DNA of 64,000 nt, taken from the NCBI GenBank assembly GCA_963699755.1, contig CAVOVB010000001.1, positions 1,887,989-1,951,988 of the forward strand, in the 5' to 3' direction. This DNA comes from an uncultured delta proteobacterium. GTDB lineage: Bacteria > Myxococcota_A > Polyangia > Polyangiales > Houyiibacteriaceae. Both the position numbers and the translations under genes were made by a program. Under the pieces are notes generated by a model. That model saw only the letters and a list, made by a program, of their open reading frames with translations, made no database searches and had not been told where the DNA came from. Of this stretch, positions 47,489 through 64,000 are shown one piece after another (the stretch's first letter is position 1; the number at the start of each line of letters is the position of its first letter).

Positions 47489-47540
47489 TGGTGCGGAAGA
47501 GAGGACTCGAACCTCCACGAGTTTTACCTCACTAGATCCT
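47489..47540 (-). pseudogene. 3' half of tRNA-Leu (xAG), att site of integrated element
   Basis: Minus strand reads AGGA-TCTAG-long variable arm TGAGGTAAAACTCGT-GGAGG TTCGAGT CCTCT-CTTCCGC-A-CCA. Similarity stops inside the anticodon loop and the 5' half is absent. Confidence 0.88.
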
Positions 47541-47974
47541 TGGCCGACACCGAGCCCTCGCAATCGTTGAATTTGTTGGAGAAAGAAGCGTCAGCAGGCG
47601 TCGGAAAAGGCCCCCAAACGACCCTTTCGGGACACGGTGTCCCGGCTGACCACTCGCAAATCGTGGGAATGGGGGAGCTTCGGAAGGCGGCGAGGGCGGT
47701 CATGTTGCGGGTCGCGGACGGCGGCGAGCTGCCCATCGAGGCGTTGCGCGACTTCGCAGCGCTGACGCTACGTTGCGAGCTCGTGCACTTGGCGCAGCGT
47801 CTTCAGGACGCGTCACCCGAGTTCGCCGTTCGTCGTGCGATGGCACTTGCAAGTCTGGTTCTGACGCTGGGGGCGAAGCCTGGACCTGCAGAGGACTCGT
47901 CCCACGCGGATGTAGCTTCTGACGGCAGCGTAGGCAGTGCCGACTCTCCAGCGGGGGAGGGCCCGACCAAATGA
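47540..47974 (+). CDS. Hypothetical protein at element end (true start probably later)
   Basis: ORF with helical protein-like C-terminal half, ATGA-coupled to mobC. Confidence 0.45.
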   Translation: MADTEPSQSLNLLEKEASAGVGKGPQTTLSGHGVPADHSQIVGMGELRKAARAVMLRVADGGELPIEALRDFAALTLRCELVHLAQRLQDASPEFAVRRAMALASLVLTLGAKPGPAEDSSHADVASDGSVGSADSPAGEGPTK

Positions 47975-48318
47975 ACTCGGGTCGCGCACGGAATCCGAAG
48001 TCCCGCATGGTCTCGTTCCGTATCGATGAGGACGATTTCAGTCGGCTCGACACCTTCGCTCAACAGACAAGCTGCTCGCGCGCAGAGGTCCTCCGACGCT
48101 TGCTCCGGACCGCTCGCCTTGAAAGTACAGTCGACGCCCAAGCCCTGACCGAGGTTGCACGGGTGCACGCCGACCTCAACCGCATCGGCGGCCTCCTCAA
48201 GCTCGCCATGCGTGAGGGCGTCAGCGAACGGTCCATCCACAGCAGACTGAATCTCGAGCTTCTTGACTCCATCATCCAAGTCCGTCGGGCGGTGGAGCGT
48301 CTAGCGGGCCGTCGGTGA
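47971..48318 (+). CDS. mobC: MobC-type relaxosome accessory protein (ribbon-helix-helix)
   Basis: MVSFRIDEDD...SRAEVLRR and LNRIGGLLK pattern; overlaps the relaxase start. Confidence 0.82.
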   Translation: MNSGRARNPKSRMVSFRIDEDDFSRLDTFAQQTSCSRAEVLRRLLRTARLESTVDAQALTEVARVHADLNRIGGLLKLAMREGVSERSIHSRLNLELLDSIIQVRRAVERLAGRR

Positions 48319-49561
48319 TTGTCCGGCATCAGCGTGCATCGGCAAGCAACAAGGGCTTTCGTCAGCTCGCCCGTTACATTCGGGGTCGAAGCGACAAGCC
48401 GAGGGCGACCTGGTTCCTGGCCGCCAATCTTCCTGGCGTGACCGGGCCCCGTGACCTCGAACTCGCGTGCCGACTCGTCGAGGTCGTGCATGCGCAGAAC
48501 ACCCGCGCGGGCAACAACCGTACGTATCACATGGTCATCTCCCTTCACCCGGAAGACCGAAGCCTCGACGGGAACGAGCTCAGGCGTGTCGTGGAAAGCC
48601 TAGTGGAGACGTTGGGGTTCTCCAGGCACCAGTACATCGCCGCGCGTCACAACGACAAAGACCACGAGCACGTTCATGTAGCCATCCACAAGATCCACCC
48701 GGAGACCTTCCGGATTCACTTGCCCGCGTGGGATCACCAGAAGCTCTTCACTGCGGGCCGTGTCCTCGAACTAGAGCTCGGACTCACGCCGCTTCAGTCG
48801 AGAGTGCGCGCTCGTGAGAAAGTCCCGCAGAGGGCGGCGGACCATGAAGCTCACCACGGAATCGACGGCTTTGCTCGCTGGGCCCGGAAGGAGCTTGGTC
48901 CCGCAGTTCGAGCCGTGCAGGTCCGGAGCTGGGACGATGTTCACGACGTGTGCGCCAGTCTAGGCGTCGTGCCTCGGCCGCATGGCAACGGCCTCGTCTT
49001 CGAGATGTCGAGCGGGGCGTGCGCGTGAAGGCCTCATTCGTCGGCCGCGAGCTCAGCAAGCCGCGCCTCTGCCAACGGTTCGGAGAGTTCCAGCCAGCGC
49101 CCGCGCATCAGCTGGAAGCTGCACGACCTGCGACCCGGCGGTACTCCCCCGTGCCGGCCATCGCACCGCAGGGCTTGTGGAACGAATACGAGCAGTCTCT
49201 CGACCAGGCCCGTTTACAGCGTCAACACGCCTGGAGCCGCTACCGCGACACCGCCTCTCGCGAGCGTCGACCGTTCAAAGAGAAGTATCGAAACCAGCGA
49301 GGCCTCCTCGCCGACCTACCCGTATCCGGTCGCGACCGAAAACGGCTTTCACAACAACTAGCGCTCCGCCAAGCCATGGAATCCCGGGCCCTCAAGCGGA
49401 AGCTCGCAGTCCAACGGAGAGCGATTCAGAAGACTCCGCACCCCGGCACATGGCGTCATTTCGTCGCCAATTGCGCCGCACATCGCGACGCCCGAGCGAT
49501 TCGAGTTCTAGAGCGACGAGAGCGGGAACGCGGCCGCATCAACGAAGGAAGGGGGTTGTGA
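48315..49561 (+). CDS. MOBP-type (TraI/MobA-like) relaxase; frameshift near 49003
   Basis: LARYI (catalytic Tyr), YHMVISL and HNDKDHEHVHVAIHKIHP (HUH). Continues in another frame as DVERGVRVKAS...RFGEF. Confidence 0.88.
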
Positions 49562-49623
49562 GTTGCAGCGAGATAGCGTCGGGATCTAGTTCGGCGATCC
49601 GAACGCGGTCCAGCGTGCGCCGC

Positions 49624-49688
49624 AAGTCGACATCATGAGGTAGTTCTGCGAAATTCGGCTCTCAGCATGAGCCCCATGGGCTAAGAGA
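49624..49688 (-). repeat. 65-bp dif-like repeat, copy A
   Basis: 49641-49688 matches 61268-61315 at 40/48 positions. Minus-strand core is ATTTCGCAGAA-8 nt-TGATGTCGACT. Confidence 0.82.
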
Positions 49689-49983
49689 GCTCGTCGGCGG
49701 TATCATCCTGATCATCGGCAACTTCCTCGGCACCTTGGCCTACGAGAAGCTGACAAAGCATGGGAGCCCCGGACCCGCCAACATCGCCCGAATCGCGATC
49801 CTCGGCTTGGTGCTCGCGATGGGCCGGAAGGCCATGGGGCTAGCCGACAACATCGTGAGCATGGCGTTTGGTTTCACCCTGGGAAGCGTTGCCGTTGCGG
49901 CCGCGCTCGCGTTTGGGCTCGGCGGTCGTGATGCTGCCAAGTCCATCGCCGACGACTGGGCGCGGAAAATCAAGGAGCGATAG
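49689..49983 (+). pseudogene. 5'-truncated TM-helix-repeat (CmpX/MscS-associated) membrane protein fragment
   Basis: LVGGIILIIGNFLG...MGLADNIVSMAFGFTLGSVAVAAALAFGLGGRDAA begins immediately after repeat A with no proper start. Confidence 0.72.
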
Positions 49984-50070
49984 CTTTGGTAGACATCACT
50001 GGGGTTGGGACCGATTGCCTCCCGCCCGGGTGATGTTGCGCCCCTTCCTTCGGCCTTAGACAGAGGTCGA

Positions 50071-51090
50071 GTGTCATCGAACGAAAAATCACCGCGAATC
50101 GCAGTCATTGGGGCCGGCATCAGCGGGCTGACCTGTGCGACCGAGCTCGCGGAGCGCCGTTATTCAGCGACGGTCCTCGACAAGGCGCGCGGTCCCGGGG
50201 CCCGCATGTCGACTCGGCGTGTGCCTGTTCTCGGAGCCGGCGCCGACTTCGATCACGGTTCACAGTACTTTACGGTTCGTTCGCCGGAGCTCTCGTCGCG
50301 CGTGCGCCAGTGGGGTATCGACGGCGTGGTCGCTCCGTCGCACGGCCGAATCGTCTCCATCGGCACCGACGGCATCGATGAGTCCAGCCGCCAGACCCGA
50401 AGGGTCGTCGGCACGCCTGAAATGAACGCAATCTGCCGAAGTCTGGCCGCGCGCTTGGACACGCGATTCGGCGTTCAGGTATCGGCGATCGAACGAGATG
50501 AGGACGGGTGGGCTCTTCTCGATCAAGCCCGACAGACCGTTGGCACGTACCAGGTCGTCCTGTGCATGGCACCCGCGCCACAGACGACGAAGCTGCTCAG
50601 GGGGATCGCACCCGCAATCGCGGAGCGCGCGGCCGCCGTCCGGATGCAGCCCTGCTGGGCACTCCTCCCGGCCTTCGCCGATCCGGTGCCCGTCGAATTC
50701 GATGGAGCCTTCGTCAATGGCGGCTCGCTCAGCTGGGTTGCGCGCACATCGGCCAAGCCAGCGCGGGAGGCTTTGCCCGACCGCTGGGTGCTGCACGCGG
50801 CGCCGAGTTGGTCGCAGACCCACCTCGAGGACGACGCAGAACGGGTCATCGAGGCGCTGATCCCTGCATTCTTCGATGCGATCGGCGTGCCTCGATCGAA
50901 GCCCGCGTGGTCGAAAGCACACCGATGGCGGTTCGCCCTTGCCGAAAACCCGCTGGAAGACGGCTGCCTCTACGACCAGAGCCTCGGGATCGGAGCCTGC
51001 GGGGATTGGGCCAACGGCAACCGGGTCGAGGGGGCATTTCTCTCCGGGCTTCGGCTGGCGAAAGAGGTCGAACGGGCGCTCGGTCGCTAG
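50071..51090 (+). CDS. Renalase-like FAD/NAD(P)-dependent oxidoreductase
   Basis: IGAGISG, DKARGPGARMSTRR, FDHGSQYFT, HRWRFA and CGDW...RVEGAFLSG motifs. Confidence 0.9.
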   Translation: MSSNEKSPRIAVIGAGISGLTCATELAERRYSATVLDKARGPGARMSTRRVPVLGAGADFDHGSQYFTVRSPELSSRVRQWGIDGVVAPSHGRIVSIGTDGIDESSRQTRRVVGTPEMNAICRSLAARLDTRFGVQVSAIERDEDGWALLDQARQTVGTYQVVLCMAPAPQTTKLLRGIAPAIAERAAAVRMQPCWALLPAFADPVPVEFDGAFVNGGSLSWVARTSAKPAREALPDRWVLHAAPSWSQTHLEDDAERVIEALIPAFFDAIGVPRSKPAWSKAHRWRFALAENPLEDGCLYDQSLGIGACGDWANGNRVEGAFLSGLRLAKEVERALGR

Positions 51091-51142
51091 ATCGGCCTCG
51101 CCCGCCGCGGGGTGTCTCATTCCTACCCCAATGAGGGAGCCC

Positions 51143-51256
51143 TGTTCTCGGGTGTCTAATGTTTGTCCCGATAAATCTCTTGACTAGCCGGATATCTGCT
51201 CTTTACACAGGTTATGTCTAGGTTCTGTCTAATAAAAGACAGGCCTGTACCAGGAG
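51143..51256 (+). promoter_or_regulatory. Rhodopsin promoter with TGTCTA repeats (candidate CarH/LitR-type operator)
   Basis: TTGACT at 51180. TGTCTA/TGTCCC at 51153/51164 and TGTCTA at 51215/51226, each pair 11 bp apart; palindrome CTGTCT-N6-AGACAG; AGGAG RBS. Confidence 0.5.
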
Positions 51257-51265
51257 TTTGTATCA

Positions 51266-52072
51266 ATGGAAATCCTCAGCTCTAACCAGTACGACCTGGT
51301 CACGAATCTGATGTCTCTCACAGTCGCGGCCATGGGCGCGGCCGCCCTGTTCTTTTTCCTCTCTCGCAGCCAAGTGGCACCCAAGCTTCGCCCCGCGCTG
51401 ACCATTTCAGGTCTCGTGGTCGCAATCGCTTGCTACCACTACTTCCGCATCTACGAGAGCTTCACCGCGGCGTATCTATTCGCCGACGGCGCCTACCAGC
51501 CCAGCGGCAAACCGTTTAACGATGCATATCGCTACGCGGATTGGCTTCTGACCGTACCGCTTCTCGTCATCGAGCTCGTCGCCGTCCTTGCCCTCGCGAA
51601 GCCGATGGCCCGTTCGCTCACCGTGCGACTCGCCGCGGCCGCCCTGCTCATGATCGCCCTCGGTTACCCGGGCGAGGTGTCGAGTGACACGACCATCCGC
51701 TGGGCCTTCTGGGGCGCGGCCATGGTTCCGTGGGTCTACATCATGTACATCCTCTACGGTCAGTTCGGCGAGGCGATTCAACGTCAACCGGCGAGCGTAC
51801 AGCCGCTCGTGAGCAAAGCCCGTCTTCTCGTCTTGGTGACTTGGGCATTCTACCCAGTCGCCTACCTCGGCCCGGAGCTAGGACTAGCGGGCGCGCAGGC
51901 GGAGACTTTTGTCCAAGTCGGCTACACCATTGCAGACATCACGGCCAAGGTTGGCCTCGGCGTCTACATCTACTTCATCGCCCGGGAGAAGACCGAGGCC
52001 GAGGGCTTCGATCTGTTGTCCGGGAGCGAAGGTGGCACGGGAAGCAATGAGAAGCTTCGCGCCGCTGCCTAA
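51266..52072 (+). CDS. Microbial rhodopsin, xanthorhodopsin-like DTE proton pump
   Basis: Seven TM segments, YHYFRI, FNDAYRYADWLLTVPLLVIE (D-T-E), LGYPGE, and DITAK Schiff-base lysine. Confidence 0.96.
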   Translation: MEILSSNQYDLVTNLMSLTVAAMGAAALFFFLSRSQVAPKLRPALTISGLVVAIACYHYFRIYESFTAAYLFADGAYQPSGKPFNDAYRYADWLLTVPLLVIELVAVLALAKPMARSLTVRLAAAALLMIALGYPGEVSSDTTIRWAFWGAAMVPWVYIMYILYGQFGEAIQRQPASVQPLVSKARLLVLVTWAFYPVAYLGPELGLAGAQAETFVQVGYTIADITAKVGLGVYIYFIAREKTEAEGFDLLSGSEGGTGSNEKLRAAA

Positions 52073-52139: not shown

Positions 52140-53114
52140 GTGGTCGATGTTGAGCTCAATCACTCCATTTTCGCCACTCTTCTCACGTTCGCTGTCGCTC
52201 TCGCCCATCTCTTCGGTGCGCTCCCTCCTACCGTCGAGCTAGTTGTCCTGGTCATGGCAATTTCAGTCTTTGGCCTACCTCACGGCGCCCTCGACTACTT
52301 GTCCGGCCGTAGTCTGCTGCAAGGCACCTTTGGCGATTGGTGGTTCGTGCCCTTCGGGGTTGGATACATGGGGCTTGCAGGGCTCGTGGTCGCCACTTGG
52401 CTGGTTGCGCCACTGGCTTCGCTGCTCACCTTTTTACTCGTGTCCGCGGCGCACTTCGGCGCCGGCGACGTCAACCCCCAACTTGCGCTTGGTGCCGGCG
52501 GTCGCTTTTCAGCGCACGGCGCAGTGTTTGAGGCCGCGGGCCGAGGCAGTCTGAGTCTGATCCCGCTTCTTCACTTCCATCCGGAAGCCGCGAGTACCCT
52601 CTTCGCCCATCTCGTTCCGCTGAGCCCGAGCGAGCTATACGCGGCGATCACGGCGGCGAGCCCACACCTCTTCGTGCTGAGCGGGGCCGTGCTCGCCGTG
52701 GTCATGGCGCATCATCTCGGCGGCTGGGCGGAGGGCACAACTGGGCATGCGCAAGTGGCGCTTGAAATTGGAGCCCTTGCCGCATTGTTCGCACTCGCAC
52801 CGCCTCTGGTCGCATTCATCGTCTATTTCTGTTTTTGGCACTCGTTCCGCCACTCGCTTCGGCAGGCTGCGAAGCTTGATCCATCTAGCCCCAGCGCCGC
52901 GTTCCAGGCATTCGTTCGTCGCGCATGGCCAACGACGGGAGCCGCATTCCTCATGGCTGCGGTGGGATATGCGCTCATCGGCGCCCAATCGTCGGACGCC
53001 AAGATCGTTCAGGTCGTGTTCGTGGGCCTGAGCGCCCTCACCGCACCGCACATCGTCCTTTCATGGCTCGCATCGCGCACAGCTTCGGTGAGCGCGAGCA
53101 CCAATCGCCAATAG
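52140..53114 (+). CDS. blh: Brp/Blh beta-carotene 15,15'-dioxygenase (start approximate)
   Basis: GLPHGALD, HFG, FWHS and LTAPH iron-ligand His motifs; directly downstream of the rhodopsin gene. Confidence 0.92.
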   Translation: MVDVELNHSIFATLLTFAVALAHLFGALPPTVELVVLVMAISVFGLPHGALDYLSGRSLLQGTFGDWWFVPFGVGYMGLAGLVVATWLVAPLASLLTFLLVSAAHFGAGDVNPQLALGAGGRFSAHGAVFEAAGRGSLSLIPLLHFHPEAASTLFAHLVPLSPSELYAAITAASPHLFVLSGAVLAVVMAHHLGGWAEGTTGHAQVALEIGALAALFALAPPLVAFIVYFCFWHSFRHSLRQAAKLDPSSPSAAFQAFVRRAWPTTGAAFLMAAVGYALIGAQSSDAKIVQVVFVGLSALTAPHIVLSWLASRTASVSASTNRQ

Positions 53115-53122
53115 AAACAAAC

Positions 53123-53923
53123 ATGTCTGCACACCAAAAAACCCTCGACACACCCTTCAGCTCGACCGACGCCCGTGCCAAGATCGACTGGAAGTCGTTC
53201 GTCGATGTCATCCCCGCGGGCCTCGAGCTCATGTCCCCGGCAAGCATCATGCGTCAGGCGTTTGAGCTGGTCTCCAACGCGACAGATGCTCGCCGGTACC
53301 TGTCGGCGCTCAGCGGTGCGCAGGCCACTCTTCGCGACGCATGCGTTCCGCTGCTGGTCCTGGAGCGACGCAACGAGCTCCCGCTGCTTGCGACGAGCTC
53401 CCTGACCCGGCCCCAGCGCCGCGGGCTAGGGCAGCTTGCGCTTCAGCTCTATTTCGCCCAGCTTTTCCGAAGCGAAACCGCCCTCATCGACCTGTGGTCA
53501 TCTCGCTTTGGCATCGATCAAGCAGGAGACGTGGTCTGGGTGCCCCGCCCGATCTACGTTCAATGGGATCCGGTTTTCTCAGGTGCGGTCGGAGACGTGT
53601 ATGCCGGGTTCTTCTCCGACGACAACGAGCTGTTTCGGTCAGGGCTCGACCGCCTTGGGCTTGGCGCGGCAGGCGCCGTCTTGCTGCGTCATCTCGGCGA
53701 AGGCAATCAACGAAGCGTGCGATTTGGCGAAGCTGGCTTGCAGTCCACCCTTCGTGATATTGTCGCACTGCGCGGGGTGAGGCAGCCCGGGTTACACCGC
53801 AATTTCGTCGCCTTCGGCCTCTACCTCGCATCGCTCCACGAGCTTCTCGCCTCGCTCGATCTGGCGTTTGACGTGAGAGCTGCCTACCTCCGGGCTCAAC
53901 CAGAGCTTGCGGACGGGATTTAG
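53123..53923 (+). CDS. Hypothetical protein, possibly a degenerate ABC1/UbiB kinase-like fold
   Basis: Co-oriented 8 bp after blh. LQLYFAQLF...IDL..SRFG resembles the ABC1 C-lobe but lacks DPHxGN/DFG. Confidence 0.6.
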   Translation: MSAHQKTLDTPFSSTDARAKIDWKSFVDVIPAGLELMSPASIMRQAFELVSNATDARRYLSALSGAQATLRDACVPLLVLERRNELPLLATSSLTRPQRRGLGQLALQLYFAQLFRSETALIDLWSSRFGIDQAGDVVWVPRPIYVQWDPVFSGAVGDVYAGFFSDDNELFRSGLDRLGLGAAGAVLLRHLGEGNQRSVRFGEAGLQSTLRDIVALRGVRQPGLHRNFVAFGLYLASLHELLASLDLAFDVRAAYLRAQPELADGI

Positions 53924-54282
53924 GCGAGCGCGATCAGTGCGCAGAGCGAAAGCACGACGAACGCCGGCAGTGACTTGAGCGGCGCATCGCCCGCCTTGAA
54001 GTGCATCGCGATGGCGCCGATCATGAGCAGGGCCATGCCCGTCGCCGCTGATTTGGTGAGCGCAGGCACCCAGAGGCCGACGATGAGAAGCGCTGAAAGC
54101 GAGATCTTCAGGAAACCGATCGTGAACATGAACCAGTCCGGCAGACCATAGACGGTGAACTCCTCTCTCATGTTCGTTGCCTCACCGCCTCTCCAACTCG
54201 TGGCTTTTCCGAATCGAAGGATCCACACGTTGAGAATGGCGAGCGCGACCACGACTTGCGCAACGGAAACGATGGTATTCAA
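53920..54282 (-). CDS. DoxX-like membrane protein
   Basis: NMREEFTVYGLP and MIGAIAMHFK patterns; TTG start with AAGGAG RBS. Confidence 0.75.
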   Translation of the reverse strand: MNTIVSVAQVVVALAILNVWILRFGKATSWRGGEATNMREEFTVYGLPDWFMFTIGFLKISLSALLIVGLWVPALTKSAATGMALLMIGAIAMHFKAGDAPLKSLPAFVVLSLCALIALA

Positions 54283-54719
54283 GGGAGGCTCCTTTCGGGT
54301 GAGGGTAGTCGCCGGCTCGCTTTGGGCTTCTGACGCTTTAGCGCCCAAAGCGGCGCAGGCAAAGCGTCGAGGGGCAAAGGCAGTCATCTAAAGGTCCCTG
54401 ATCTGAGTGCCGATGCCTGCCGTGACGAAGCGAGCGGTCGCGTGCTCTTGCACATCGGCCCTGTGCCAAACTCCGGCATCGTTGATCGCGTATTCACGGG
54501 CTCGAAGCCGTATGACGTCGTTCTCGGCCTCTTGGCGATCGCATTCGGCACGCTCGTCCTGCTCACCTACCGATACTACCTGCAATACAGCATCAACTCG
54601 CCGGAAGCACAAGATTCTCAGAGCTCCGGCTGACGACGCACACGTCGAATGAGGTTGCCTGGCCATCCTCGAGTTCCTGCCCGAAGGCACCGCGGGGACT
54701 CCCGCGTGCTCCTACTCCG

Positions 54720-55541
54720 TCAAACCCCTTGGCAGGTCGGGCAGAGGTAGAGGCGTCGAGAGGCGACGCTGAGTTTCTCGACCTCGGTCCCACATCGATA
54801 GCAGGGCTTGCCCGCGCGACCGAACACGGCGTGGCGGTAGTCCCTTCGCTTGAAGCCTTTCTGCTTGAGCTGAGCGACGCGATGCGGCGTGTTGGTGATG
54901 CCGCCAAGCTCGTACGCACGCGCACCCACGGCGAGGGTCTCGGCGGCGAGCTTTCGCTGCTCGGCAGCCTCGAGGTCGCTTGGCCGTTGCTTGGGATGTA
55001 CCCGGGCAAAGTAGAGAATCTCGGAGCGCAGATAGTTTCCGATGCCGGCAACGAAGCGCTGATCGAGATACAGGCTGCCTAGGGCGCGGTTGCGAAACTG
55101 CCGTCCCCTTAGCCGCGCGACCAACGCCTGTGGCGAGAGGTCACGGCTCAGCAAGTCCGGGCCGATGCGGCTCAAGAACGGATGCTCCCCGAGCCCACGC
55201 TCGTCCAGCACGGCGATCTCCGAGGCGCTGTACAAGAGCGCGCTGGCCTTGGCGGTGTGAAGGGCGACACGCAGCGAGCGATTGGTCTTGGGGTAACTCT
55301 CGCGCGAGCGCACGAACCAGCGTCCGTAGAGCTGGTTGTGCGAATAGAGCGACAGCCCGTGCTCGAAGTGAATCAACAGCGCTTTGCCTCGCGTTTCGAG
55401 TTCGACCACTCGGCGCCCACTGAGCTGTGGCGCGAACTGCTCGAGCCTCGGGAGCCCGAACCAAACCGTCTCGACCACCTGGCCCGTCAGCTCGGCGGCG
55501 ATCTTGTCAGCGGCGCGTCGAATCTCGGGACCTTCAGGCAC
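54720..55541 (-). CDS. nei: Endonuclease VIII (Fpg/Nei glycosylase)
   Basis: N-terminal PEGPE, RGKAL, SHNQLYG, AGIGNYLRSE, and C-terminal CxxC...CPTCQ zinc finger. Confidence 0.95.
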   Translation of the reverse strand: MPEGPEIRRAADKIAAELTGQVVETVWFGLPRLEQFAPQLSGRRVVELETRGKALLIHFEHGLSLYSHNQLYGRWFVRSRESYPKTNRSLRVALHTAKASALLYSASEIAVLDERGLGEHPFLSRIGPDLLSRDLSPQALVARLRGRQFRNRALGSLYLDQRFVAGIGNYLRSEILYFARVHPKQRPSDLEAAEQRKLAAETLAVGARAYELGGITNTPHRVAQLKQKGFKRRDYRHAVFGRAGKPCYRCGTEVEKLSVASRRLYLCPTCQGV

Positions 55542-55547: not shown

Positions 55548-56444
55548 TCATACTTTCCGCTCGTCGCGTGGATGCGATCGGCTCGCCATGAGCTCGATGG
55601 CGCGTGGCAGGATGTCGGCGCAATCGCCGGAGAGCTTGTGCGTGGCGAAGTCATCGGCCCGCGTCGTCCCGCGATTGACGATGACGAGTGGCTTACGGGC
55701 ACCGTGCGCGGCGACGGCGAAACGGTAGCCGGAGTAGATCATGAGCGAAGAGCCGATCACGAGGAGCGCGTCGGATTCCTGGACGTGCCGGTGCACCGCG
55801 TCGACCCTGTCCTTGGGAACCGACTCGCCGAAGAAGACCACGTCGGGCTTGAGCACGCCGCCGCAGCGCGCGCAGTCCGGGACGACGAACGATTCGAAGT
55901 CCTGCCGTGAGAGCTTTGTGTCCCCGTCGGGCGCGTGCCCGCGCACTTCCGCCCGCCAGCCCCGGTTCGCATCCTGAAGCTGCTGCTGAAATGCCTCGCG
56001 GGGCATGATCTGTCCGCAGCCGAGGCAGCGAACACGGTGAAGGACACCGTGAAGGTCGATGACCTGACGGCTACCCGCCCGTTGATGAAGCCCGTCCACG
56101 TTCTGTGTGACGAGGCACGAGATATGGCCCCGATTCTCCAATGCGCTGAGCGCGCGGTGGGCCGCGTTCGGCTTCGCGCGGGAGATCCGCTCCCACCCGC
56201 TGAAGCTTTGGGCCCAGTAGCGCTGACGGTTGCCGAGCTCGCGCACGAATTGCGCGTACCGCATCGGCTCTCTGTGCTTCCATTTCCCGTCGTCGTCCCG
56301 GTAGTCGGGAATCCCGGAGGCGGTGCTGCAGCCGGCTCCGGTGAGAATCGTGGTTCTGGGGTGCTGCGCGATGAAATCCGCGAGCCTTTGGGCGGACTCG
56401 CGGGCACGAAAGGAAACGGAGTGATTTTCTACCGCGCGCGTCAT
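55548..56444 (-). CDS. cobB: Sir2-family NAD-dependent deacylase (class II/SIRT4-like)
   Basis: GAGCSTASGIPDYR, RQRYWA, TQNVDGLH, LHG and KPDVVFFGE motifs. Confidence 0.92.
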   Translation of the reverse strand: MTRAVENHSVSFRARESAQRLADFIAQHPRTTILTGAGCSTASGIPDYRDDDGKWKHREPMRYAQFVRELGNRQRYWAQSFSGWERISRAKPNAAHRALSALENRGHISCLVTQNVDGLHQRAGSRQVIDLHGVLHRVRCLGCGQIMPREAFQQQLQDANRGWRAEVRGHAPDGDTKLSRQDFESFVVPDCARCGGVLKPDVVFFGESVPKDRVDAVHRHVQESDALLVIGSSLMIYSGYRFAVAAHGARKPLVIVNRGTTRADDFATHKLSGDCADILPRAIELMASRSHPRDERKV

Positions 56445-56451: not shown

Positions 56452-57405
56452 CTAATGATCCGCAGTGGGCAGATGACGCCGGATCGCGTCTCGAATGGCT
56501 TCGAAATCGGCGTTGGCGCGGGCGTCGGCGGGGTCCTCGCTCGGGAAGAAGACGGGCCCTGGGTGCACATGAACGAACCTGCCCTCCGCGTCGATGACGA
56601 AGCTCGCGGAGGTCGCTCGCCGACGGCTGCCGTCGAGCCACCACGATCGGAGCGTTGCCCAGTCGTGATCGTATGCAAAGGGAAAGGTCACGCCGAGCTT
56701 AGCGGCATGCGCGACGACGCCCTTCCAGGAGCGCTCGCTGCCGAGAGGCTTTGACTGGTAGAGACCCACGAAGGTCACCGGCGCGTCCTTCATCTCTTCG
56801 GCTAGCTTCTGCATGGCCGGAAGGCTTGCGTCGCAGTAGGGGCAGGTGTCGGTCCAGAAGCGCACGACCAGCACGCGACCCCGAAGGTCATCGAGCCGCA
56901 GCGGCCTCGAGTTCGCCCACTCTGGGCCGGCGAGCCACTCCTTTGCCTGGGTCCCGAGAAGGTCTCCTCCCGCAGCCTGGTTCTCCTCGGCTTCACGCTG
57001 CCGCATCGGCATCCGGTCGATGAGCTGAAACACGACCGCGGGCAGATCCGCCGTCTCCGAAGTCCACTGGCCTTTCACCCTGCCATCCTTCCCGATCAGG
57101 GTGACTCGACCTCGGGCCTGCCTTTCGATCTCCGGCGCGAGCCGGAGGCTGACCCGCGTCGGGGGCTTTGGGAACTGCTGGAGATAGCCGTGGCTTCCCT
57201 TCCGGAAGAGCACGAGATTTCTCTCTGACAAGGCGGTCGAGTGCTTGGCCCAATCCGCCCGATCCGAGGGTGTCTCCTTTGTGTCGAGTAGAATCACGCG
57301 ATGCTTCCACTGCAGCGCTTCGAGCGCCACCAGGGTATCGGCCTTTGCCGAAACCACGAGCCAGTAAGCCACGAACAGCGAGGCCGCACCGAGGATGGGT
57401 CGCAC
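56452..57405 (-). CDS. Secreted DUF4174-like domain fused to TlpA-like thioredoxin domain
   Basis: Signal peptide; WKHRVILL...LIGKDGRVK...IDRMPMRQRE followed by FWTDTCPYC. Confidence 0.8.
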   Translation of the reverse strand: MRPILGAASLFVAYWLVVSAKADTLVALEALQWKHRVILLDTKETPSDRADWAKHSTALSERNLVLFRKGSHGYLQQFPKPPTRVSLRLAPEIERQARGRVTLIGKDGRVKGQWTSETADLPAVVFQLIDRMPMRQREAEENQAAGGDLLGTQAKEWLAGPEWANSRPLRLDDLRGRVLVVRFWTDTCPYCDASLPAMQKLAEEMKDAPVTFVGLYQSKPLGSERSWKGVVAHAAKLGVTFPFAYDHDWATLRSWWLDGSRRRATSASFVIDAEGRFVHVHPGPVFFPSEDPADARANADFEAIRDAIRRHLPTADH

Positions 57406-57506
57406 CCGACCATCGTCGAGCCGGGCGGTCCCAAGCGCAAGCCGGGCTGCAGCGTCGACCGTTTCTCGTTATCTCTGCTATACGAACCACCGGATTGGAG
57501 GTCGGC

Positions 57507-57854
57507 ATGACGCGACACGTGGTCTGCAAGGAGTCAGACCTTTCGGTGGGCCAGAAAAAGGCGTTCAAGGCCGGCGACACGAGCGTGCTCGTCTATCGTC
57601 TGGAGGACGGTGTCTACGCCACGCAGAACAGCTGCACGCATGTGTTCGCGCCGCTGACGAGGGGCAAGGTCGTCGATGGAGAGCGGATTCGCTGCCCCCT
57701 TCACCGCGCGGAGTTCGACATTCGGACCGGGGAGGTGTGCAAATGGGCGAACTTCCCGCCGGGAATTCAGCTTCTGAACGCGCTCCGCGGCGAGAAGGCG
57801 CTAAAGACCTATCCTGTCCTGGTGGAAGAGGGAAACGTCGTCGTCGAGGTCTGA
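57507..57854 (+). CDS. Rieske [2Fe-2S] ferredoxin
   Basis: CTH...CPLH ligands, FDIRTG; GGAGG RBS. Confidence 0.92.
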   Translation: MTRHVVCKESDLSVGQKKAFKAGDTSVLVYRLEDGVYATQNSCTHVFAPLTRGKVVDGERIRCPLHRAEFDIRTGEVCKWANFPPGIQLLNALRGEKALKTYPVLVEEGNVVVEV

Positions 57855-57980: not shown

Positions 57981-59489
57981 ATGCACGTAGTCTGGTTCAA
58001 ACGCGACCTCCGCATTCACGACCACCGCCCTCTGCTCGACGCCGCGGCGCAGGGGAAAGTGCTGTGCCTGTACGTCTACGAGCCCGAGCTTTTCGCCACG
58101 CCCGAGCTCGGCGCGCTCCACCTTCGCTTCATCAACGAGTCCCTCGCAGCGCTGCGCGTCCGCCTCCGCGAGCGCGGGGCCGATCTCATCCTTCGGGTCG
58201 GGCGCATGCCCGACGTGCTCGACGCCATCCGCCGCCAACATGGGATCACCGCGCTCTACAGCCATCGCGAGACCGGCAACCGCGTCAGCTACGAGCGCGA
58301 TCTTCGCGTTGCCGGCTGGGCGCGCCAGCACAGCGTGCCCTGGCACGAGCGCAATCAGTTTGGCGTGATTCGAAAACTCGGCACGCGGGACGGTTGGTCG
58401 GCTCGCTGGTCGAAATTCATGTCGCGCCCGATTGTCGACGTCCCCGGCGGGCTCCACGCCGAAGCGGGAATCGAGCCCGAAGGCTTGCGGACCGCCCAGG
58501 ACCTCGGTTTGTCCCCGCCTTCGCAGCGCGACGTCCAACACGGAGGCGAGCAGCTGGGCCTCGATACCCTCGACTCGTTTCTCGCCGAACGCGGCGCGGG
58601 ATACCGATACGAGATGTCGAGCCCGCTGCATGCGTCGGAGTCCTGCAGCCGACTCAGCCCCTACCTCGCATGGGGCAACGTCTCGATGCGAACCGTCTTC
58701 CAACGAGCGCGCGCACGCTCTGCCGAGGTGAAAGAGCTTCGCAAACAGAAGGTTGACCTCGACCCGAGATGGCTTCAGTCGCTGAGCTCGTTTCAATCGA
58801 GGCTCCGGTGGCACTGCCACTTCATACAAAAGCTCGAGGACGAGCCCGACCTCGAGTTCAGGGCGCTCAACCGGCACCTGGATGGGCTTCGCGATGGAAA
58901 GCTTCGCGACGACTACTTCCAGGCCTGGGCAAACGGGCACACGGGCTACCCGATGGTCGACGCCTGCATGCGGGCGCTGCATCAAACCGGTTGGATCAAC
59001 TTCCGGATGCGGGCGATGCTCATGTCGTTCGCGAGCTACCAGCTATGGCTTCCATGGAGGCCGACGGCTCTGCATCTCGGCAGCCAGTTCCTCGACTTCG
59101 AGCCAGGCATTCACTTCAGTCAAGCGCAGATGCAGTCGGGGGTCACCGGAATCAACGCCGTCCGGATCTACTCACCGGTCAAGCAGGTCAAGGATCAAGA
59201 TCCGGAGGGACAGTTCATCAAGCGTTTCGTCCCGGAGCTGGAAGCAGTGCCGCCCGAGCACATCGCCGAGCCCCACCGGATGCCACGCGACCTCCAACAA
59301 AAGCTTGGCTGCATCATCGGTAAAGACTATCCGGCGCCCATCGTGGAGCACGGCCCAGCCTACGCGACCGCGCGCCAACGCATCTCCGCCGCACGGCGGC
59401 GACCCGAAGTCCAGGAGGAGTCCGAGCGGGTGTACGAAAAGCACGGAAGCCGCAAACGCCCGGCCCGACGCGCCTCCGGGTCGGCCTAG
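57981..59489 (+). CDS. Cryptochrome/DNA photolyase family protein
   Basis: VVWFKRDLRIHDH, SRLSPYLAWG, TGYPMVDACMR, GWINFRMRAM and RIYSPVKQ motifs. Confidence 0.95.
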   Translation: MHVVWFKRDLRIHDHRPLLDAAAQGKVLCLYVYEPELFATPELGALHLRFINESLAALRVRLRERGADLILRVGRMPDVLDAIRRQHGITALYSHRETGNRVSYERDLRVAGWARQHSVPWHERNQFGVIRKLGTRDGWSARWSKFMSRPIVDVPGGLHAEAGIEPEGLRTAQDLGLSPPSQRDVQHGGEQLGLDTLDSFLAERGAGYRYEMSSPLHASESCSRLSPYLAWGNVSMRTVFQRARARSAEVKELRKQKVDLDPRWLQSLSSFQSRLRWHCHFIQKLEDEPDLEFRALNRHLDGLRDGKLRDDYFQAWANGHTGYPMVDACMRALHQTGWINFRMRAMLMSFASYQLWLPWRPTALHLGSQFLDFEPGIHFSQAQMQSGVTGINAVRIYSPVKQVKDQDPEGQFIKRFVPELEAVPPEHIAEPHRMPRDLQQKLGCIIGKDYPAPIVEHGPAYATARQRISAARRRPEVQEESERVYEKHGSRKRPARRASGSA

Positions 59490-59574: not shown

Positions 59575-60930
59575 ATGAGCGAAGCTTCCGAGAACATCGA
59601 GCCCCATATCATCGTCGTCGGCGGCGGTTTTGGGGGAATGAGCGTCGTCACCTCTCTCGAACATACGCCGGTACAGCTTACGCTCGTCGACCGGCGTAAC
59701 CACCACCTGTTTCAGCCCTTGCTCTACGAGGTGGCGACCGCGGCGCTCTCGCCCGGCCAGATCGCGGTCCCGCTCCGCCACGTTTTTCGGCGACAAAAGA
59801 ACGCGACGGTCGTCCTCGGAGACGTCACTTCGGTGGACCTCGAGCGCAGAGTCGTCGAAATCGACGGCGAACCATTATCCTACGACTACCTGGTCTTGGC
59901 AACGGGCTCCACGCATCACTACTTCGGGCACGACGCCTGGGCGGCCCACGCTCCCGGGCTGAAGTCCGTCGACGATGCGCTCGAGATTCGCCGCAGGTTT
60001 CTTCTGACGTTCGAGCAGGCGGATCGCAGCGACAGCCCTGACGAGCGCCGGCGTCTGATGACGACCGTGATCGTCGGAGGTGGGCCGACGGGCATCGAGC
60101 TTGCCGGAACGATGTCGGAGGTGGCCAAACGCGTATTGCAAGGAGAGTTCCGGAATCTCGACCCGTCCTCGCTCGAAATCGTGCTCGCCGAGGGCGCCGA
60201 CCGGTTGCTCCCTGCGCTCGCCCCCGAGCTTTCCGCGCTGGCGAAGCGCGACCTCGAAAAGCTCGGAGTCAAGGTGCGCCTAAAGACCTACGTGACCGAG
60301 ATCGATGAGCGAGGCGTCGTCCTCCAGGGCGGCGAATGCATTTCTGCCTCCAACGTGATCTGGGCCGCTGGAGTGTGCGGAGCGCCCATCGAACGAGGGC
60401 TTCAGGCGTTCATGCGAGACGACCGGAGGCTGAACGTCGAGCCCGATCTCTCGCTTGCCGGCCATCGAGAGGTATTCGCCATCGGCGACCTCGCCTATGT
60501 CGAAACCGACGGGGAGCAGGTCCCTGGGCTCGCTCCCGCGGCGCTCCAGATGGGGAAGTACGTCGGCAAGCTGCTGGCGAACCAGGTGGGGCGGGGTGGT
60601 TACGCAGGCGAACCAAAGCCGTTTGAATACTGGGACAAAGGAACGCTCGCGACGATCGGGCGGGGCAAAGCCGTTGCCGACATCGGCCGCTTCAAGTTCG
60701 GCGGCCTGCTGGCTTGGCTGCTCTGGGTCTTCATCCACATCTTTTTTCTCGTCGGCTTCCGAAACCGGGTCATGGTTCTCATCGAGTGGGCCTACGCCTA
60801 CGTCACGTTCCACCGCGGGGCGCGCCTCATTACCGGTCAGGGCACCCGGCCGAAGGCGCTCGCCGCAAACGCGAGTTCCACGCCATCGCACCCATCGGCC
60901 GACTCAGAGAGCGTCTCCGCCGCCTCCTGA
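59575..60930 (+). CDS. ndh: Type II NADH:quinone oxidoreductase
   Basis: GGGFGG, HLFQPLLYEVAT, GGGPTGIELAG, WAAG and KGTLATIGR motifs. Confidence 0.92.
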   Translation: MSEASENIEPHIIVVGGGFGGMSVVTSLEHTPVQLTLVDRRNHHLFQPLLYEVATAALSPGQIAVPLRHVFRRQKNATVVLGDVTSVDLERRVVEIDGEPLSYDYLVLATGSTHHYFGHDAWAAHAPGLKSVDDALEIRRRFLLTFEQADRSDSPDERRRLMTTVIVGGGPTGIELAGTMSEVAKRVLQGEFRNLDPSSLEIVLAEGADRLLPALAPELSALAKRDLEKLGVKVRLKTYVTEIDERGVVLQGGECISASNVIWAAGVCGAPIERGLQAFMRDDRRLNVEPDLSLAGHREVFAIGDLAYVETDGEQVPGLAPAALQMGKYVGKLLANQVGRGGYAGEPKPFEYWDKGTLATIGRGKAVADIGRFKFGGLLAWLLWVFIHIFFLVGFRNRVMVLIEWAYAYVTFHRGARLITGQGTRPKALAANASSTPSHPSADSESVSAAS

Positions 60931-61005
60931 GTCGCTTTTGCGTCGATACTTCATCGAAAAGCGAATCGGCGACGGCGCATGCGCCACGGGTTTGAGATCA
61001 TCGTT

Positions 61006-61213
61006 TCACAGGGCGGGCTCTTCGATCGGGTGTGACAAGACTTCTTTGACGAGCGGATTGGGGAACCGACGACTCTGGGTGATCGCGTAGAATCGCTCGG
61101 TGATCTCGGGGATCTTGAAGTGCTCGACGAGCACGCCATCCATGAGCTCGTCCAAGACGACGACCGGCGGCACCAGTGCGAGGCACTGACTCTCGCGTGC
61201 GAAGAGCCGGAGG
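61006..61213 (-). pseudogene. C-terminal remnant of NhaR-like LysR regulator, cut at the ISCR-like oriIS
   Basis: LRLFARESQCLALVPPVVVLDEL...ERFYAITQSRRFPNPLV; similarity ends at the oriIS-like motif. Confidence 0.72.
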
Positions 61214-61251
61214 CTGATAGGAAAAACAAACGCCCTCTGCCTGCGGCGCCC

Positions 61252-61315
61252 CACGCGACATAACGATTAGTACCGCGAAATTCGGCGCTCATCGTTATCC
61301 CGATGGGCTAAGAGA
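61252..61315 (-). repeat. dif-like repeat, copy B (direct repeat of copy A)
   Basis: Minus-strand core ATTTCGCGGTA-7 nt-TTATGTCGCGT; shares TCTCTTAGCCCAT with copy A. Confidence 0.82.
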
Positions 61316-61431: not shown

Positions 61432-62796
61432 TCAGCAAGCCCAGACGTTGTCGAGCTCAGGGGATGCCCGGGCAGGCGCGAGCTGGACTGGGTCTGAGGG
61501 AAGATCGAGATGGCGGAGGATTCGGCGGATGGCGCTTGAGAGCAGGATCGCAGCCACGAACCGGAGGCGCTCACCACGATCGGGGCATTCGAGCACGTCG
61601 ATGTCGAGCCCACGTCGCATGAGCTCAGCCCGGGTGCGATTGCGCGAATCGACGACCTTCTTCGGAGTGCTTGCGGATGATGCCTTCTCAACTTGCGCAC
61701 GGCCGAAGTCCACGACCTCCCCTCGCCACTTGGGGTTTGGCGCGGGCACGCCGCGATAGCCGATGAGGTTCACGTACGGGCGGGGAGTCAGGGCAGCGAG
61801 CTTTTCGAGGAGCTCGAACGGCTGAAGGGCCATGTGGCTCGTCCCATCACGCCATGGCGTCTTGAGCCGCACGAGCACGTTTCCATCCGGCCTAAAGGAC
61901 AAGCGGTCCTCGGCGACGGGCGGACGGAGCAGATACCGGCAACGGCGCTCGGGCTTGGGGCGGTTCTTGGCGCGGACGGAGGTGTTCGCGTGAAGGTCGA
62001 AACCACCGTGGCGGGCTTGTCACGGACCTTTCGGGGAAGCGGGTTGCGCCGTCGACGCGTCTCCGAGGCGGAGCACGGTTGCACCTGCGCGTCGTCCCAT
62101 GGCGACTCGTTGACGGACGGCCGCAGCGTAGAGCGCGTGCAATGGCGGCTGCGAAGGAGAGCAAGCCGTCCGGTTCTCGAACGAAGACCCCGTCGAGCGC
62201 GAGCGTATGAAAGTGCACGTTCAGGTTCAGCGTGCCACCAAAGCGCTGAATGACCGTCACCGTGCCGGTGAGGCCGCCTCGGTGGCCCGATGCCTTGGCT
62301 CGCTTTCGGTAGAAGCCCTGCAGTGCGCGCGCGTAGACCGCGAGCACCGCGCAGCAGAGATGGTGATCCGAGGCAAGCCGATAGCGAAGCTCGAAGGGAA
62401 GGCTCAGAGCCCACTGCCGCACCGGGGCCCGCGGAAGCACGTGGTCAATGAGATGCGCAGCGCGCTCGGTCATCCGACGGCCGCCGCAGCTTGGGCAAAA
62501 GCCCCGACCTTTGCAGGAGAACGCAACCAACCGATCGGTACCTCAGCCCGTACACCGAAGGCGGCCAAAGTCATGCGTGAGCATGCCGCAGCGAGCGAAT
62601 CGCTGAAACTCGCGCTTCACGAACAAGGGGGCGCCACGCGCGTGCTCACGTCGATCGAGCTCCCAGAGGAAGGTCTGAGGGTGCTCGCGGACAATGCGGT
62701 GGAGCACCCCCATGCTCCGGAGCGCGACGCACGTACGATCGGGTACTCGGCCCGCTCGTAGCTGCGGCGTGAAGCTCCACGACGACGGTGCGCCAT
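61432..62796 (-). pseudogene. IS91/ISCR-type Y2 transposase with Zn-binding domain; in-frame stop and frameshifts
   Basis: VAFSCKGRGFCPSCGGRRM, RQWALSLP, IQRFG...NVHFH, LKTPWRDGT and LEKLAALTPRP; TGA at 62543-62545. Confidence 0.88.
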
Positions 62797-63087
62797 CAAG
62801 ACTCGTGCCGTTGTCCGGCCCACCTTTTTCAACGCGTTTCATTTAGACCGCTCCGAAGCCAAGTGGCGAACGGCGTCAGACTAGTGGCGGCTGCCATCCT
62901 CGGCACGTGTGTCGCTTTGCTCTCCCTGATGCCCCCGCTGCGAATAAGCCGAAGGCGTTGAGCTCGGCATGCGGGGATTGGGATATCTTCGATGTCTTAC
63001 AATCCCACATCTTGCCCCAACCAAGTCGGGTCCCTTTTGACGCACAATGAATCTATTTGGAGTTCTTTGCGCCACTCTGAATCGCAA

Positions 63088-63134
63088 TGACTCCGATTGC
63101 TTTGAAATGACACAAACAGAGTCAATCGGAGTCA
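63088..63134. repeat. 12-bp perfect inverted repeat in AT-richer intergenic region
   Basis: TGACTCCGATTG-N23-CAATCGGAGTCA. Confidence 0.6.
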
Positions 63135-63336
63135 GATCGAACCAGTTCTGAGCAAAATTGCGCAACACGATTCAGAAAAGAGCAAAACGAGTCATTCCGC
63201 GTCATCACGATCCACGAATATAGTTCGGTCCCCCGGACAACTTTTTGGGGGGCAAAACCGATAATAGGGGTGTGACCGAAAGCCTGTATTCAGATCAGTT
63301 TTCCGCTGAACCTCCTCCGGGCGAAGCTCGGGGACA

Positions 63337-63675
63337 TTGACGGGCGACTCATCGCGTCAGAAAACCGCAGCTCCCGAATCGCCCCTGCTGACAAGGGACG
63401 AAGCAGCGGGGTATTGTCGAGTAGGGCTGCGCACGTTTGATCGGCGCGTCGCACCTCAGGTGCGTGGGCTTTGCATCGGAGCTCGCCGCTTCTTTGACCG
63501 AAGGGATATCGATAGATGGCTCGAAACGCAGAAGGATGGACACTCCACCGGGATCCGCGAACGAAGACCTTCACGGTCCGGTTCAGGGCTGCCGGGAAGC
63601 GTTGTCATCGATCCACTGGCGAAACAGATCGCGCGGCGGCTCAAGAAGAAGCTGCTCGAATCGTCCGAGAGGTGA
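63337..63675 (+). CDS. Excisionase-like helix-turn-helix protein
   Basis: LLTRDEAAGYCRVGLRTFDR...RRFFDRRDIDRWL; GTGA overlap with the integrase. Confidence 0.8.
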   Translation: MTGDSSRQKTAAPESPLLTRDEAAGYCRVGLRTFDRRVAPQVRGLCIGARRFFDRRDIDRWLETQKDGHSTGIRERRPSRSGSGLPGSVVIDPLAKQIARRLKKKLLESSER

Positions 63676-64000
63676 CGCTCGAGCCCGCTGTCGTCGGGGC
63701 TGCGCCGGGGCTGGACGTGAGTCTGCCGGAGCTTTTCGGACGCTGGTTGGCGGCGATGAGCGCCGAGGTGTCGGCCGACACGGTTCGGTGTTGGGAGACC
63801 TATGCGGCCGCGCATCTCATCCCGTTCTTCGAAACGGCGCAGGACCTTTGCTCGGATGCTCGCTTAGGAGACTACATGCGGTATCGCCTCACGAAGGTGA
63901 AACGAACGACGCTCAAGAAGGAGCTGAGCGCCCTGAACCGCCTCTTCGACTGGATGGTCGAGCAGAAGCTTCTCGGGACCAAGCCAACGATTCCGCGGAT
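63672..64000 (+). CDS. int: Tyrosine integrase, N-terminal core-binding domain (truncated by window end)
   Basis: My translation gives ...YAAAHLIPFF...YMRYRLTKVKRTTLKKELSALNRLFDWMVEQ, a SAM-like integrase domain pattern following xis. Confidence 0.75.
   Translation, partial: MTLEPAVVGAAPGLDVSLPELFGRWLAAMSAEVSADTVRCWETYAAAHLIPFFETAQDLCSDARLGDYMRYRLTKVKRTTLKKELSALNRLFDWMVEQKLLGTKPTIPR

Follow-up and report, generated by a model that had tools for sequence, protein, structure and literature searches.

A probable rhodopsin and repair cassette between ISCR-type repeats in a tRNA-Leu island of a myxobacterial genome

The DNA examined here, called the window throughout, is the final 64 kb of contig C1 of the myxobacterial assembly G000 (GenBank GCA_963699755.1, contig CAVOVB010000001.1, positions 1,887,989 to 1,951,988), and its right-hand part holds an island that is likely inserted at a tRNA-Leu gene and carries a xanthorhodopsin-clade rhodopsin. 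We propose, with a probability of roughly 0.68, that this is a mobile island bearing a swappable 11.5-kb rhodopsin/repair cassette, which was captured by an ISCR (insertion sequence common region) element and slotted into the island by the host recombinase XerC. The parts of this proposal differ in strength: the existence of the element and its cassette is very probable, the loading of cassettes by Xer recombination is, judged from the sequences, slightly favoured, and transfer of the window copy at present is rather unlikely. The element is a real one of a known kind, an integrative mobilizable element (IME) with an ISCR, and it is new in its cassettes bounded by dif-mimicking oriIS ends, its split integrase and its phototrophy load. 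The spread of rhodopsin phototrophy has mostly been inferred from trees; here the vehicle, the target, the cassette ends and alternative loads are visible. Comparisons were drawn within a set of 55 genomes of the genus, among which the nearest relative, G023 (98% complete), served as proxy for the host of the contig segment that contains the window; contigs from sequencing runs (X6, X17, X18 and others) represent other samples.

Cassette content and lateral spread

The cassette spans window positions 49689 to 61214 (11.5 kb), starts and ends in cut genes, and is bounded by ~100-bp copies of an ISCR oriIS. At its left end stands the 3' fragment of a mechanosensitive-channel (mscS-like) gene (49689..49983, plus strand), cut at the inner end of repeat 1; the gene is intact, at 392 aa, in G005, G042, G023 and locus L203. 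The right end is the 3' fragment of a LysR gene (61006..61214, minus strand), cut at the outer end of repeat 2 and intact (297 aa) in G005. A first block comprises genes for a renalase-like FAD oxidoreductase (50071..51090, plus; PF13450, PF01593), the rhodopsin (51266..52072, plus; PF01036; PDB 9WFA, 3DDL and 6NWD at E<1e-69), the beta-carotene 15,15'-dioxygenase Blh (52140..53114, plus; TIGR03753 above cut-off), a 266-aa protein (53123..53923, plus) and a DoxX-like membrane protein (53920..54282, minus; PF13564). The 266-aa protein has no match in Pfam, NCBIfam or PHROG and falls in an unnamed family commonest in Myxococcota (ESM clusters, 0.97), whose paralogs (54-60%) adjoin crt genes or carotenoid clusters. 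A second block holds repair and redox genes, namely endonuclease VIII (Nei; 54720..55541, minus; NF007763 above cut-off), a sirtuin deacetylase (55548..56444, minus; NF003738 above cut-off), a DUF4174-redoxin fusion (56452..57405, minus; PF13778, PF08534), a Rieske ferredoxin (57495..57854, plus; PF00355), a photolyase/cryptochrome family protein (57981..59489, plus; PF00875, PF03441; best PDB E 7e-44) that lies below every NCBIfam class cut-off, and a type II NADH dehydrogenase (NDH-2; 59575..60930, plus; PF07992, PF22366). The two are fused at a 6-bp microhomology (54504..54509), the point at which the matches in G005 end and begin on two contigs.

An earlier reading of this DNA from its sequence only had named these cargo genes (renalase-like, rhodopsin, blh, DoxX, Nei, sirtuin, DUF4174-thioredoxin, Rieske, photolyase family and NDH-2), and Pfam and NCBIfam confirm all of them. 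Its view of the cargo as a phototrophy and photoprotection kit is weakened, since the two blocks lie apart in relatives, one variant lacks the photolyase, and the cargo is thus no fixed unit. G010 and G011 have the block 2 genes but no rhodopsin, and the photolyase-free variant (missing window 57899-59425) was seen in locus L201 and in a contig of run X17. In G005, contig C9 carries block 2 at 6 kb from its end, C14 carries block 1 at 946 bp from its start, and the orientations match, so that the two blocks may adjoin there; G005:C14 also holds peroxiredoxin, AhpF-like and LysR genes. The cassette junction had 0 matches in viral contigs. RNA-run contigs were considered as evidence of expression and set aside, as two sets cover cargo and backbone alike and hence give no sign of transcription.

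Rhodopsin is present in five of the 55 genus genomes and absent from G023 (rpoB 99% identical), so the cluster is not genus core, in line with what the sequence-only reading expected; G022 holds a blh-doxX piece on a short contig. Seven metagenome loci, the closest of 80 kept, were annotated. Locus L201 shows a repeat, the same cut mscS start and the same block fusion at 95% identity over 8.3 kb, without the photolyase, and its cassette stands behind other genes and a different relaxase that is only 37-43% alike over most of its length. In locus L200 a repeat, the same cut mscS fragment and the rhodopsin block occur in a third context, and L199 has the right flank of G005. Synonymous divergence (Ks) from G005 is 0.05-0.12 in block 2 and 0.16-0.23 in four of the five block 1 genes (doxX, 0.04), as compared to 0.30 for rpoB and 0.32-0.69 for 10 of 13 flank genes; between G004 and G005 it is 0.05-0.15 in block 1 and 0.41 in rpoB. 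The rpoB Ks values of G060 and G042 and the G042 branch were dropped as alignment artefacts, and window 4700-9200 was discarded as a core-gene control, with matches in only 16 of 55 genomes, rpoB being taken instead. The low Ks together with the occurrence of the same cassette behind a different relaxase supports lateral movement of the cargo.

In an 82-sequence alignment the opsin carries the proton-pump residues D92-T96-E103 (the DTE motif), H58, D224 and K228, which include a His-Asp pair, the Asp of the second counter-ion and the Lys that binds retinal, and its Ka/Ks is about 0.05. By its residues it is a xanthorhodopsin-clade DTE pump under purifying selection, for which proton pumping is predicted. 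At the antenna window, for which a Gly/Trp rule has been described (PMC3646047), the opsin has Trp149 in a column that holds W35/F27/G20, rather than the glycine of xanthorhodopsin position 156; a pairwise HMMER alignment instead placed G150 there by means of a gap in the helix. Blh travels alone with the opsin, without other carotenoid genes in the cassette. The cassette likely plugs into host beta-carotene, because G023 has crtE, crtB, crtI and lycopene cyclase and 43 of the 55 genomes have a phytoene/squalene synthase family match; the rhodopsin would then pump protons using retinal that Blh cuts from the beta-carotene of the host's own crt cluster.

Repeats, backbone and target of the island

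Repeat 1, an oriIS-type copy on the relaxase side (49574..49688, plus), is identical to the L200 repeat over its inner 57 nt. Repeat 2 (61215..61315, plus) is an ISCR oriIS end whose outer end matches that of ISVsa3/ISCR2 and whose outer half is 98% identical to that of L200. Beside it lies a broken ISCR/IS91-family transposase gene (61432..62842, minus; NF052416, PF04986, PF14319, and tblastn with the G014 copy), with residues 191-231 missing and its frames broken. Intact 468-aa ISCR transposases, 42-43% identical to ISVsa3, occur in G014 and on contigs C2 and C7. The element has the marks of an ISCR, namely a HUH transposase with Zn-binding and Y2_Tnp domains (broken in the window) and an oriIS downstream of it: the ~100-bp repeat lies 217 bp past the transposase stop (234 bp in ISVsa3) and ends in the same motif as ISVsa3, a motif shared also with the ISCR1 oriIS 22-mer of PMC13023784. 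Upstream of the transposase, on the side where a terIS would lie, the shared ISCR sequence ends near 62932.

G000 contains 58 copies of the repeat, 41 of them within 10 kb of an integrase, relaxase or ISCR match, zones that make up 6% of the genome, and neighbouring pairs share their orientation in 33 of 43 cases. The inner end of the repeat is sharp: 31 of 42 cargo junctions start with GC or AGC, against a background of 0.13, and contigs of three other runs also break there with varied flanks. Four copies in the G014 element are identical to the end of its resident intact ISCR. The repeat was also considered as a simple miniature inverted-repeat transposable element, for which no empty site was found among 22 copies with both ends (a comparison of low power), and as an attC site or structured RNA, for which there was no Rfam match and three copies folded as DNA without a common long hairpin. 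Accordingly the repeats lack the attC fold of an integron, and the cassettes are multi-gene units with cut ends.

Within the repeats lies a core that resembles dif. A strict dif pattern found nothing, and a looser one found a 28-bp site of 11-6-11 form on contig C3, which occurs once in 40 and twice in 2 of the 55 genomes; we read it as a putative dif and name its C and D arms by analogy with known sites. The core of repeat 1 (49625-49654) has a C-side arm matching at 11/11, an 8-nt spacer and a D-side arm at 8/11, and that of repeat 2 (61253-61281) has 9/11, a 7-nt spacer and 7/11. Scores of at least 14/22 against the dif-like site were reached by 45 of 60 repeat copies and by 16 of 2000 random pieces. 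The 48 distinct cores include 16 pairs in which one half is at least 93% identical; 13 of these are mosaics, and 12 switch at the edge between C arm and spacer. The spacer goes with the outer half, and its first three bases are the same in 27 of the 48 cores. The L200 repeat combines the outer half of window repeat 2 with the inner half of window repeat 1, which is the junction expected if the cassette were a circle. XerD is above cut-off in five of five genomes and a XerC-like gene is present in four of five, and XerC-only exchange at sites with a poor XerD side has been published for CTXphi and VGJphi (PMC5357621). No dif mimic within an oriIS was found in the literature searched, which left supplements and most subscription papers outside.

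The backbone encloses this cargo on the left with an att half (47491..47543, minus), the 3' 53 bp of tRNA-Leu(AAG) from the 7-nt anticodon loop onwards, which matches the G023 tRNA at 52/53. The mismatch is T>C at 47542, within the anticodon loop, and the T is kept in 8 other aligned att/tRNA copies. Next come genes for a MobC/NikA-like relaxosome protein (47971..48318, plus; PF21983 E 1.6e-7; TraJ NF010451) and a MOBP TraI-like relaxase (48315..49561, plus; PF03432 and NF041893 on both pieces) in which one base is missing near 49003. The relaxase is intact, at 415 aa, in G020, G011 and G014, and contigs of three of four runs have an extra G at the frameshift. The frameshift may be an assembly error, because rpoC (L284:193-4386 = G000:C1:1670192-1674385) is split in the same segment into three frames by two frameshifts, so that one-base assembly errors do occur there; weighing against this, 11.5 kb of flank aligns to G023 with one gap. 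To the right, conserved backbone (62933..63336), 91% identical to G020 and G022 from 62933 on, leads to an excisionase-like HTH protein (63337..63675, plus; phrog_66 E 2e-6) and the N-terminal 161 aa of a tyrosine integrase (63516..64000, plus; 87% to G020 Int), C1 stopping inside the integrase gene at window 64000. The complete G020 integrase is a 394-aa PF00589 protein. A run X18 contig joins 49680 straight to 62933, the cargo being absent, and a run X6 contig continues 436 nt past the window end into the integrase 3' end and att.

Of the parts of an IME, an integrase (161 aa within the contig) with its directionality factor and a relaxase with its accessory protein are present, and one of the two expected att repeats lies in the contig; both repeats are found in G020, G014 and G061. 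Each backbone feature that the sequence-only reading had named (att half-tRNA, mobC-relaxase, excisionase and integrase start) was confirmed at its coordinates, and its description of a tRNA-Leu-targeted integrase-relaxase element without type IV secretion system (T4SS) genes is supported. Its statement that these features enclose the cargo holds for the left att, the mob genes, the excisionase and the integrase start, while closure on the right rests on sister elements, as C1 ends at 64000. It had also predicted a complete integrase followed by an intact tRNA-Leu, and relatives G020, G014 and G061 hold just such whole elements, with intact tRNA-Leu, integrase, variable cargo, mob end and att. 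The G020 backbone, 85-91% identical to that of the window, places the tRNA-Leu ~640 bp beyond the contig end, and the X6 contig bridges the same distance. It had suggested a comparison for empty sites, and in four loci (L040, L046, L049, L055) an unoccupied tRNA is directly followed by the trailer that follows the window's att half. G023 has the same flank and att at 96%, with another element there and without rhodopsin; a large serine recombinase is encoded in one of the G023 elements at this att.

The integrase gene of the element is interrupted by its own attachment site. Its frame runs through att, attP thus lying within the int reading frame, and meets a stop 18 codons in on the tRNA side. 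At the far end of the element a 160-codon frame opens out of att (47492..47974, plus) in the same frame as Int, and is the predicted C-terminal extension of Int in the excised form; 11 of 13 att halves keep this frame free of stops over 136-160 codons, across both integrase families and two tRNAs, and the frame is 40% identical to the equivalent frame of the other integrase family. Excision would thus lengthen Int, and by analogy with phage Mx8 this lengthening on circularisation is likely an activity switch. The second, distant integrase family at the same tRNA also reads through att (L037, L039, L041, L044, L051, L053, L056, L059-L061), and an integrase match lies within 1.5 kb of 15 of 30 tRNA loci. 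A complete sister element of the same layout, with split integrase, stands at a tRNA-Leu(TAG) (G000:C1:1560241-1567536), and its mob end is near-identical in G011.

The target tRNA-Leu has the anticodon AAG (L013:12927-13011; G000:C5:295746-295830). The tRNA-Leu at the end of C5 was rejected as partner of the window element, C5 being 78-84% and the window segment 96-100% identical to G023. In pattern searches of 171 genomes of the order, AAG was found in 70 (including one unpublished genome, G154) and GAG in 73, split by family: AAG in 39 of 44 genomes of family f1 and 21 of 22 of f21, GAG in 43 of 44 of f17, 20 of 20 of f16 and 7 of 7 of f10. Families f3, f7, f8 and f14 match neither pattern, and G146, G181 and G215 match both, the second match being atypical. 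tRNA-Leu(AAG) thus replaces GAG across whole families. A TadA-like deaminase match is present in five of five genomes, the genome is 62.5% GC, and CTC is its commonest leucine codon (44.6%).

Mechanism, rival readings and source genome

In the mechanism that we favour, Int and Xis would excise the element at the anticodon loop, circularisation would lengthen Int by about 142 residues, and the relaxase would pass the circular form on to a T4SS supplied by a helper. The cassette would arise when the ISCR end enters a donor gene at a tetranucleotide ending in GC and a second transposase-made joint, at the inner end of the repeat, closes a repeat-plus-cargo circle. XerC would then act at the spacer's C-side edge and exchange strands of this circle with those of the repeat that follows the relaxase, which would yield repeat-cargo-repeat in direct orientation. 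The transposase of the window copy is dead, and transfer and excision of that copy may be impaired. More broadly, and tentatively at somewhat under even odds, myxobacterial tRNA islands may form an integron-like gene collector in which the ISCR transposase excises oriIS-tagged cassettes, XerC/D inserts them at dif mimics and a relaxase island with an Mx8-type switch ships the array between species, rhodopsin being one cassette in three contexts.

Several observations weigh against this account, beginning with how the cassette entered. ISCR transposition itself is undemonstrated according to PMC9376610 and PMC6218425, neighbouring repeats are inverted in 10 of 43 pairs, the spacers are 7-8 nt long versus 6 in dif, the XerC-like genes fall just under their family cut-off, and the mosaic pairs lack independence, 4 of them belonging to a single G014 element. 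The same element and cassette could have come about through recombination by RecA, or through the ISCR transposase without further help, as proposed for ISCR1 complex integrons, the dif likeness being protective or a leftover. The model published for ISCR1 has circles rescued by recombination (PMC13023784), the identical G014 repeats offer perfect homology over 98 bp, the switch in one mosaic pair lies past the D-side arm, and the core, as the best-conserved part of the repeat, would attract any crossover. We nevertheless judge such an entry quite improbable, as the outer halves of mosaic partners are only 37-39% alike and diverge from spacer base 1-3 onwards, too little for RecA, while 12 of 13 switches fall at one edge and the C-side arm matches the genus's own dif at up to 11/11. 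An arm-spacer-arm core would fit any tyrosine recombinase, and movement of CR2-sul2 by the integrase of GIsul2, an IME with an ISCR, has been shown experimentally (PMC9376610), so that the island's own integrase might move cassettes at internal sites in place of XerC/D. That possibility appears very remote, since the internal site of GIsul2 resembles attL/attR whereas here there is no match to the tRNA att core and a match to the host dif instead, and some repeats sit in regions that hold a different integrase or no integrase at all.

The least secure step is mobilisation. VirB4 and VirD4 families have no match in G000, the coupling-protein family TraG-D_C is matched in one of the 55 genomes and marginally (E 1e-4), and a MOBP-type nic motif (oriT) has no match in the att-mobC interval of the window. 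The earlier inference of a mobilizable element that needs a helper therefore stands for its IME parts and lack of T4SS, and falls short on the helper, of which the genus shows none beyond that marginal match, and on the oriT. Binned genomes often miss plasmids, so a helper may still exist. The tRNA end of the window copy is unassembled, that copy carries the relaxase frameshift and att mismatch, and the crt genes of its own host are absent from the assembly. Nor is the backbone the sole vehicle of the rhodopsin: G005, G042 and G062 hold the rhodopsin block with no integrase, relaxase or ISCR match in 12-21 kb, and queries with these three genes matched none of 81 related rhodopsin loci. G042 (Ks 0.57-1.06) and G062 (1.0-2.1) fit descent rather than recent transfer, and three flank genes have a Ks of 0.04-0.21 to G005, including those at 24562-29309 (0.11, 0.04), which means that ordinary homologous exchange occurs here too. 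The island could be a dead relic, with the rhodopsin block an ancestral locus, patchily distributed in one subclade, that arrived here once and now spreads among close species by homologous exchange without conjugative mobilisation. The missing helper and oriT, the damaged relaxase, att and transposase, the divergence of G042 and G062, the low-Ks flank genes and a quick tree in which the five genus rhodopsins form one clade all suit it. We consider it unlikely, because the cassette is found next to two relaxases that are unrelated to each other and once more in another setting, sister elements commonly have intact relaxases and integrases, and the rpoC frameshifts show that one-base errors occur in this part of the assembly.

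G000 is a mixed bin in which the window segment comes from a G023-like organism, of which ~360 kb is present: rpoB on C1 is 99% identical to G023 (Ks 0.038 between G023 and the window organism) and window 15900-35400 is 97% identical, while C1 at 1.0 and 1.5 Mb, C3, C5 and C10 are only 73-84% identical. C1 looks chimeric, its right ~360 kb being G023-like and joined to the main organism at G000:C1 about 1,583,000-1,589,000, and the junction is a 5.5-kb mob element that matches the end of C7 at 99.8% identity. The idea that C7 is a contaminant or another strain's haplotype was rejected, as it continues the main organism and the window segment is the foreign part; for the same reason a host without carotenoid genes was rejected. 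A carotenoid cluster (~10 kb) of G023 and G005 is missing at G000:C10:106206-106771, and a crt cluster of the main organism lies on C7 instead, close to the tRNA-Leu array. The sequencing runs were not used as a clue to habitat, since the best hold at most 37% of words.

GC content does not mark the island. The left flank from 42052 to 47548 is common to G023 at 96% and includes, outside the element, the 3' remnant of an older integrase with a 20-bp att stub at 47330-47349 (47121..47349, plus; tblastn 79% to residues 292-382 of G020 Int). A third oriIS repeat, inverted and likewise common to G023, lies at 41299-41420, so this flank is older island debris. Further left are a Cysteine-rich repeat/fibro-slime protein followed by an ECF sigma factor with a FecR-TPR protein (39181-44864), a stretch with GC down to 0.53 that covers a UbiA prenyltransferase and a 486-aa protein without Pfam match (36001-39000), and a likely DabAB inorganic-carbon transporter pair (3333-7558; 31% to a PF10070 protein of G005) that is patchy across the genus.

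Comparison with known systems

Rhodopsin beside a tRNA gene and an integrase (PMC7701988) and an IME with an ISCR (PMC9376610) are already published. In glacial Tardiphaga, a xanthorhodopsin operon beside a tRNA gene and a tyrosine integrase was read as recent horizontal transfer; there the full operon lies among insertion sequences, and the accessible text describes no relaxase, exact att half or oriIS cassette (PMC7701988). No relaxase-bearing rhodopsin island was found in the literature searched. GIsul2 resembles the window element in its tyrosine integrase and excisionase, its plasmid-type transfer proteins, its need of a helper, its ISCR element, and its cargo on the oriIS side with a truncated gene between. 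It differs in targeting guaA and in having one resistance cargo unit moved by the integrase at att-like sites, and no oriIS array, dif mimic or split integrase is reported in the accessible text (PMC9376610). The split integrase is like that of Mx8 and Mx9, in which attP lies within the integrase gene and integration gives Int a new 3' end (PMC6070905); those are temperate phages, whereas the window element is a relaxase-bearing island.

The target tRNA extends a pattern known from other bacteria. As in Lactobacillales, AAG substitutes for GAG by family, and unlike those AT-rich hosts this genome is GC-rich and prefers CTC (PMC13249217; 10.64898/2026.05.15.725136). Both sources place tRNA-Leu(AAG/IAG) in AT-rich Bacilli, and the literature searched yielded no tRNA-Leu(AAG) from Myxococcota. 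A family-wide AAG tRNA in GC-rich, CTC-preferring bacteria provides a test of TadA editing of tRNA-Leu outside Bacilli.

With integrative mobile elements exploiting Xer (IMEX; VGJphi, CTXphi, the gonococcal genetic island GGI and EludIMEX-1; PMC5357621) the window repeats have in common a dif-like site whose XerC side is conserved and whose XerD side is degenerate. Unlike those elements, which insert at the chromosomal dif, they lie inside tRNA islands: the C3 dif is single, no repeat is near it, and the element uses the tRNA att. Plasmid dif (pdif) modules of Acinetobacter likewise have cargo between dif-like sites, but are plasmid-borne with inversely oriented sites, whereas the islands here are chromosomal and their sites mostly direct (PMC9771954). 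In the accessible accounts, neither IMEX nor pdif sites are embedded in an ISCR end (PMC5357621, PMC9771954). ISCR1 and ISCR2/ISVsa3 have the same terminal oriIS motif and variable genes on the oriIS side (PMC6218425, PMC13023784, PMC13181058). Unlike in them, the last ~100 bp of oriIS recur here as direct repeats that have no transposase, contain a dif-like core and end sharply on the second side too, and the last 130 nt of ISVsa3 lack a dif-like arm. For the way in which ISCRs gather genes next to oriIS, a mechanism that PMC9376610 describes as undemonstrated, a dif mimic in oriIS with crossovers at one edge offers a testable answer.

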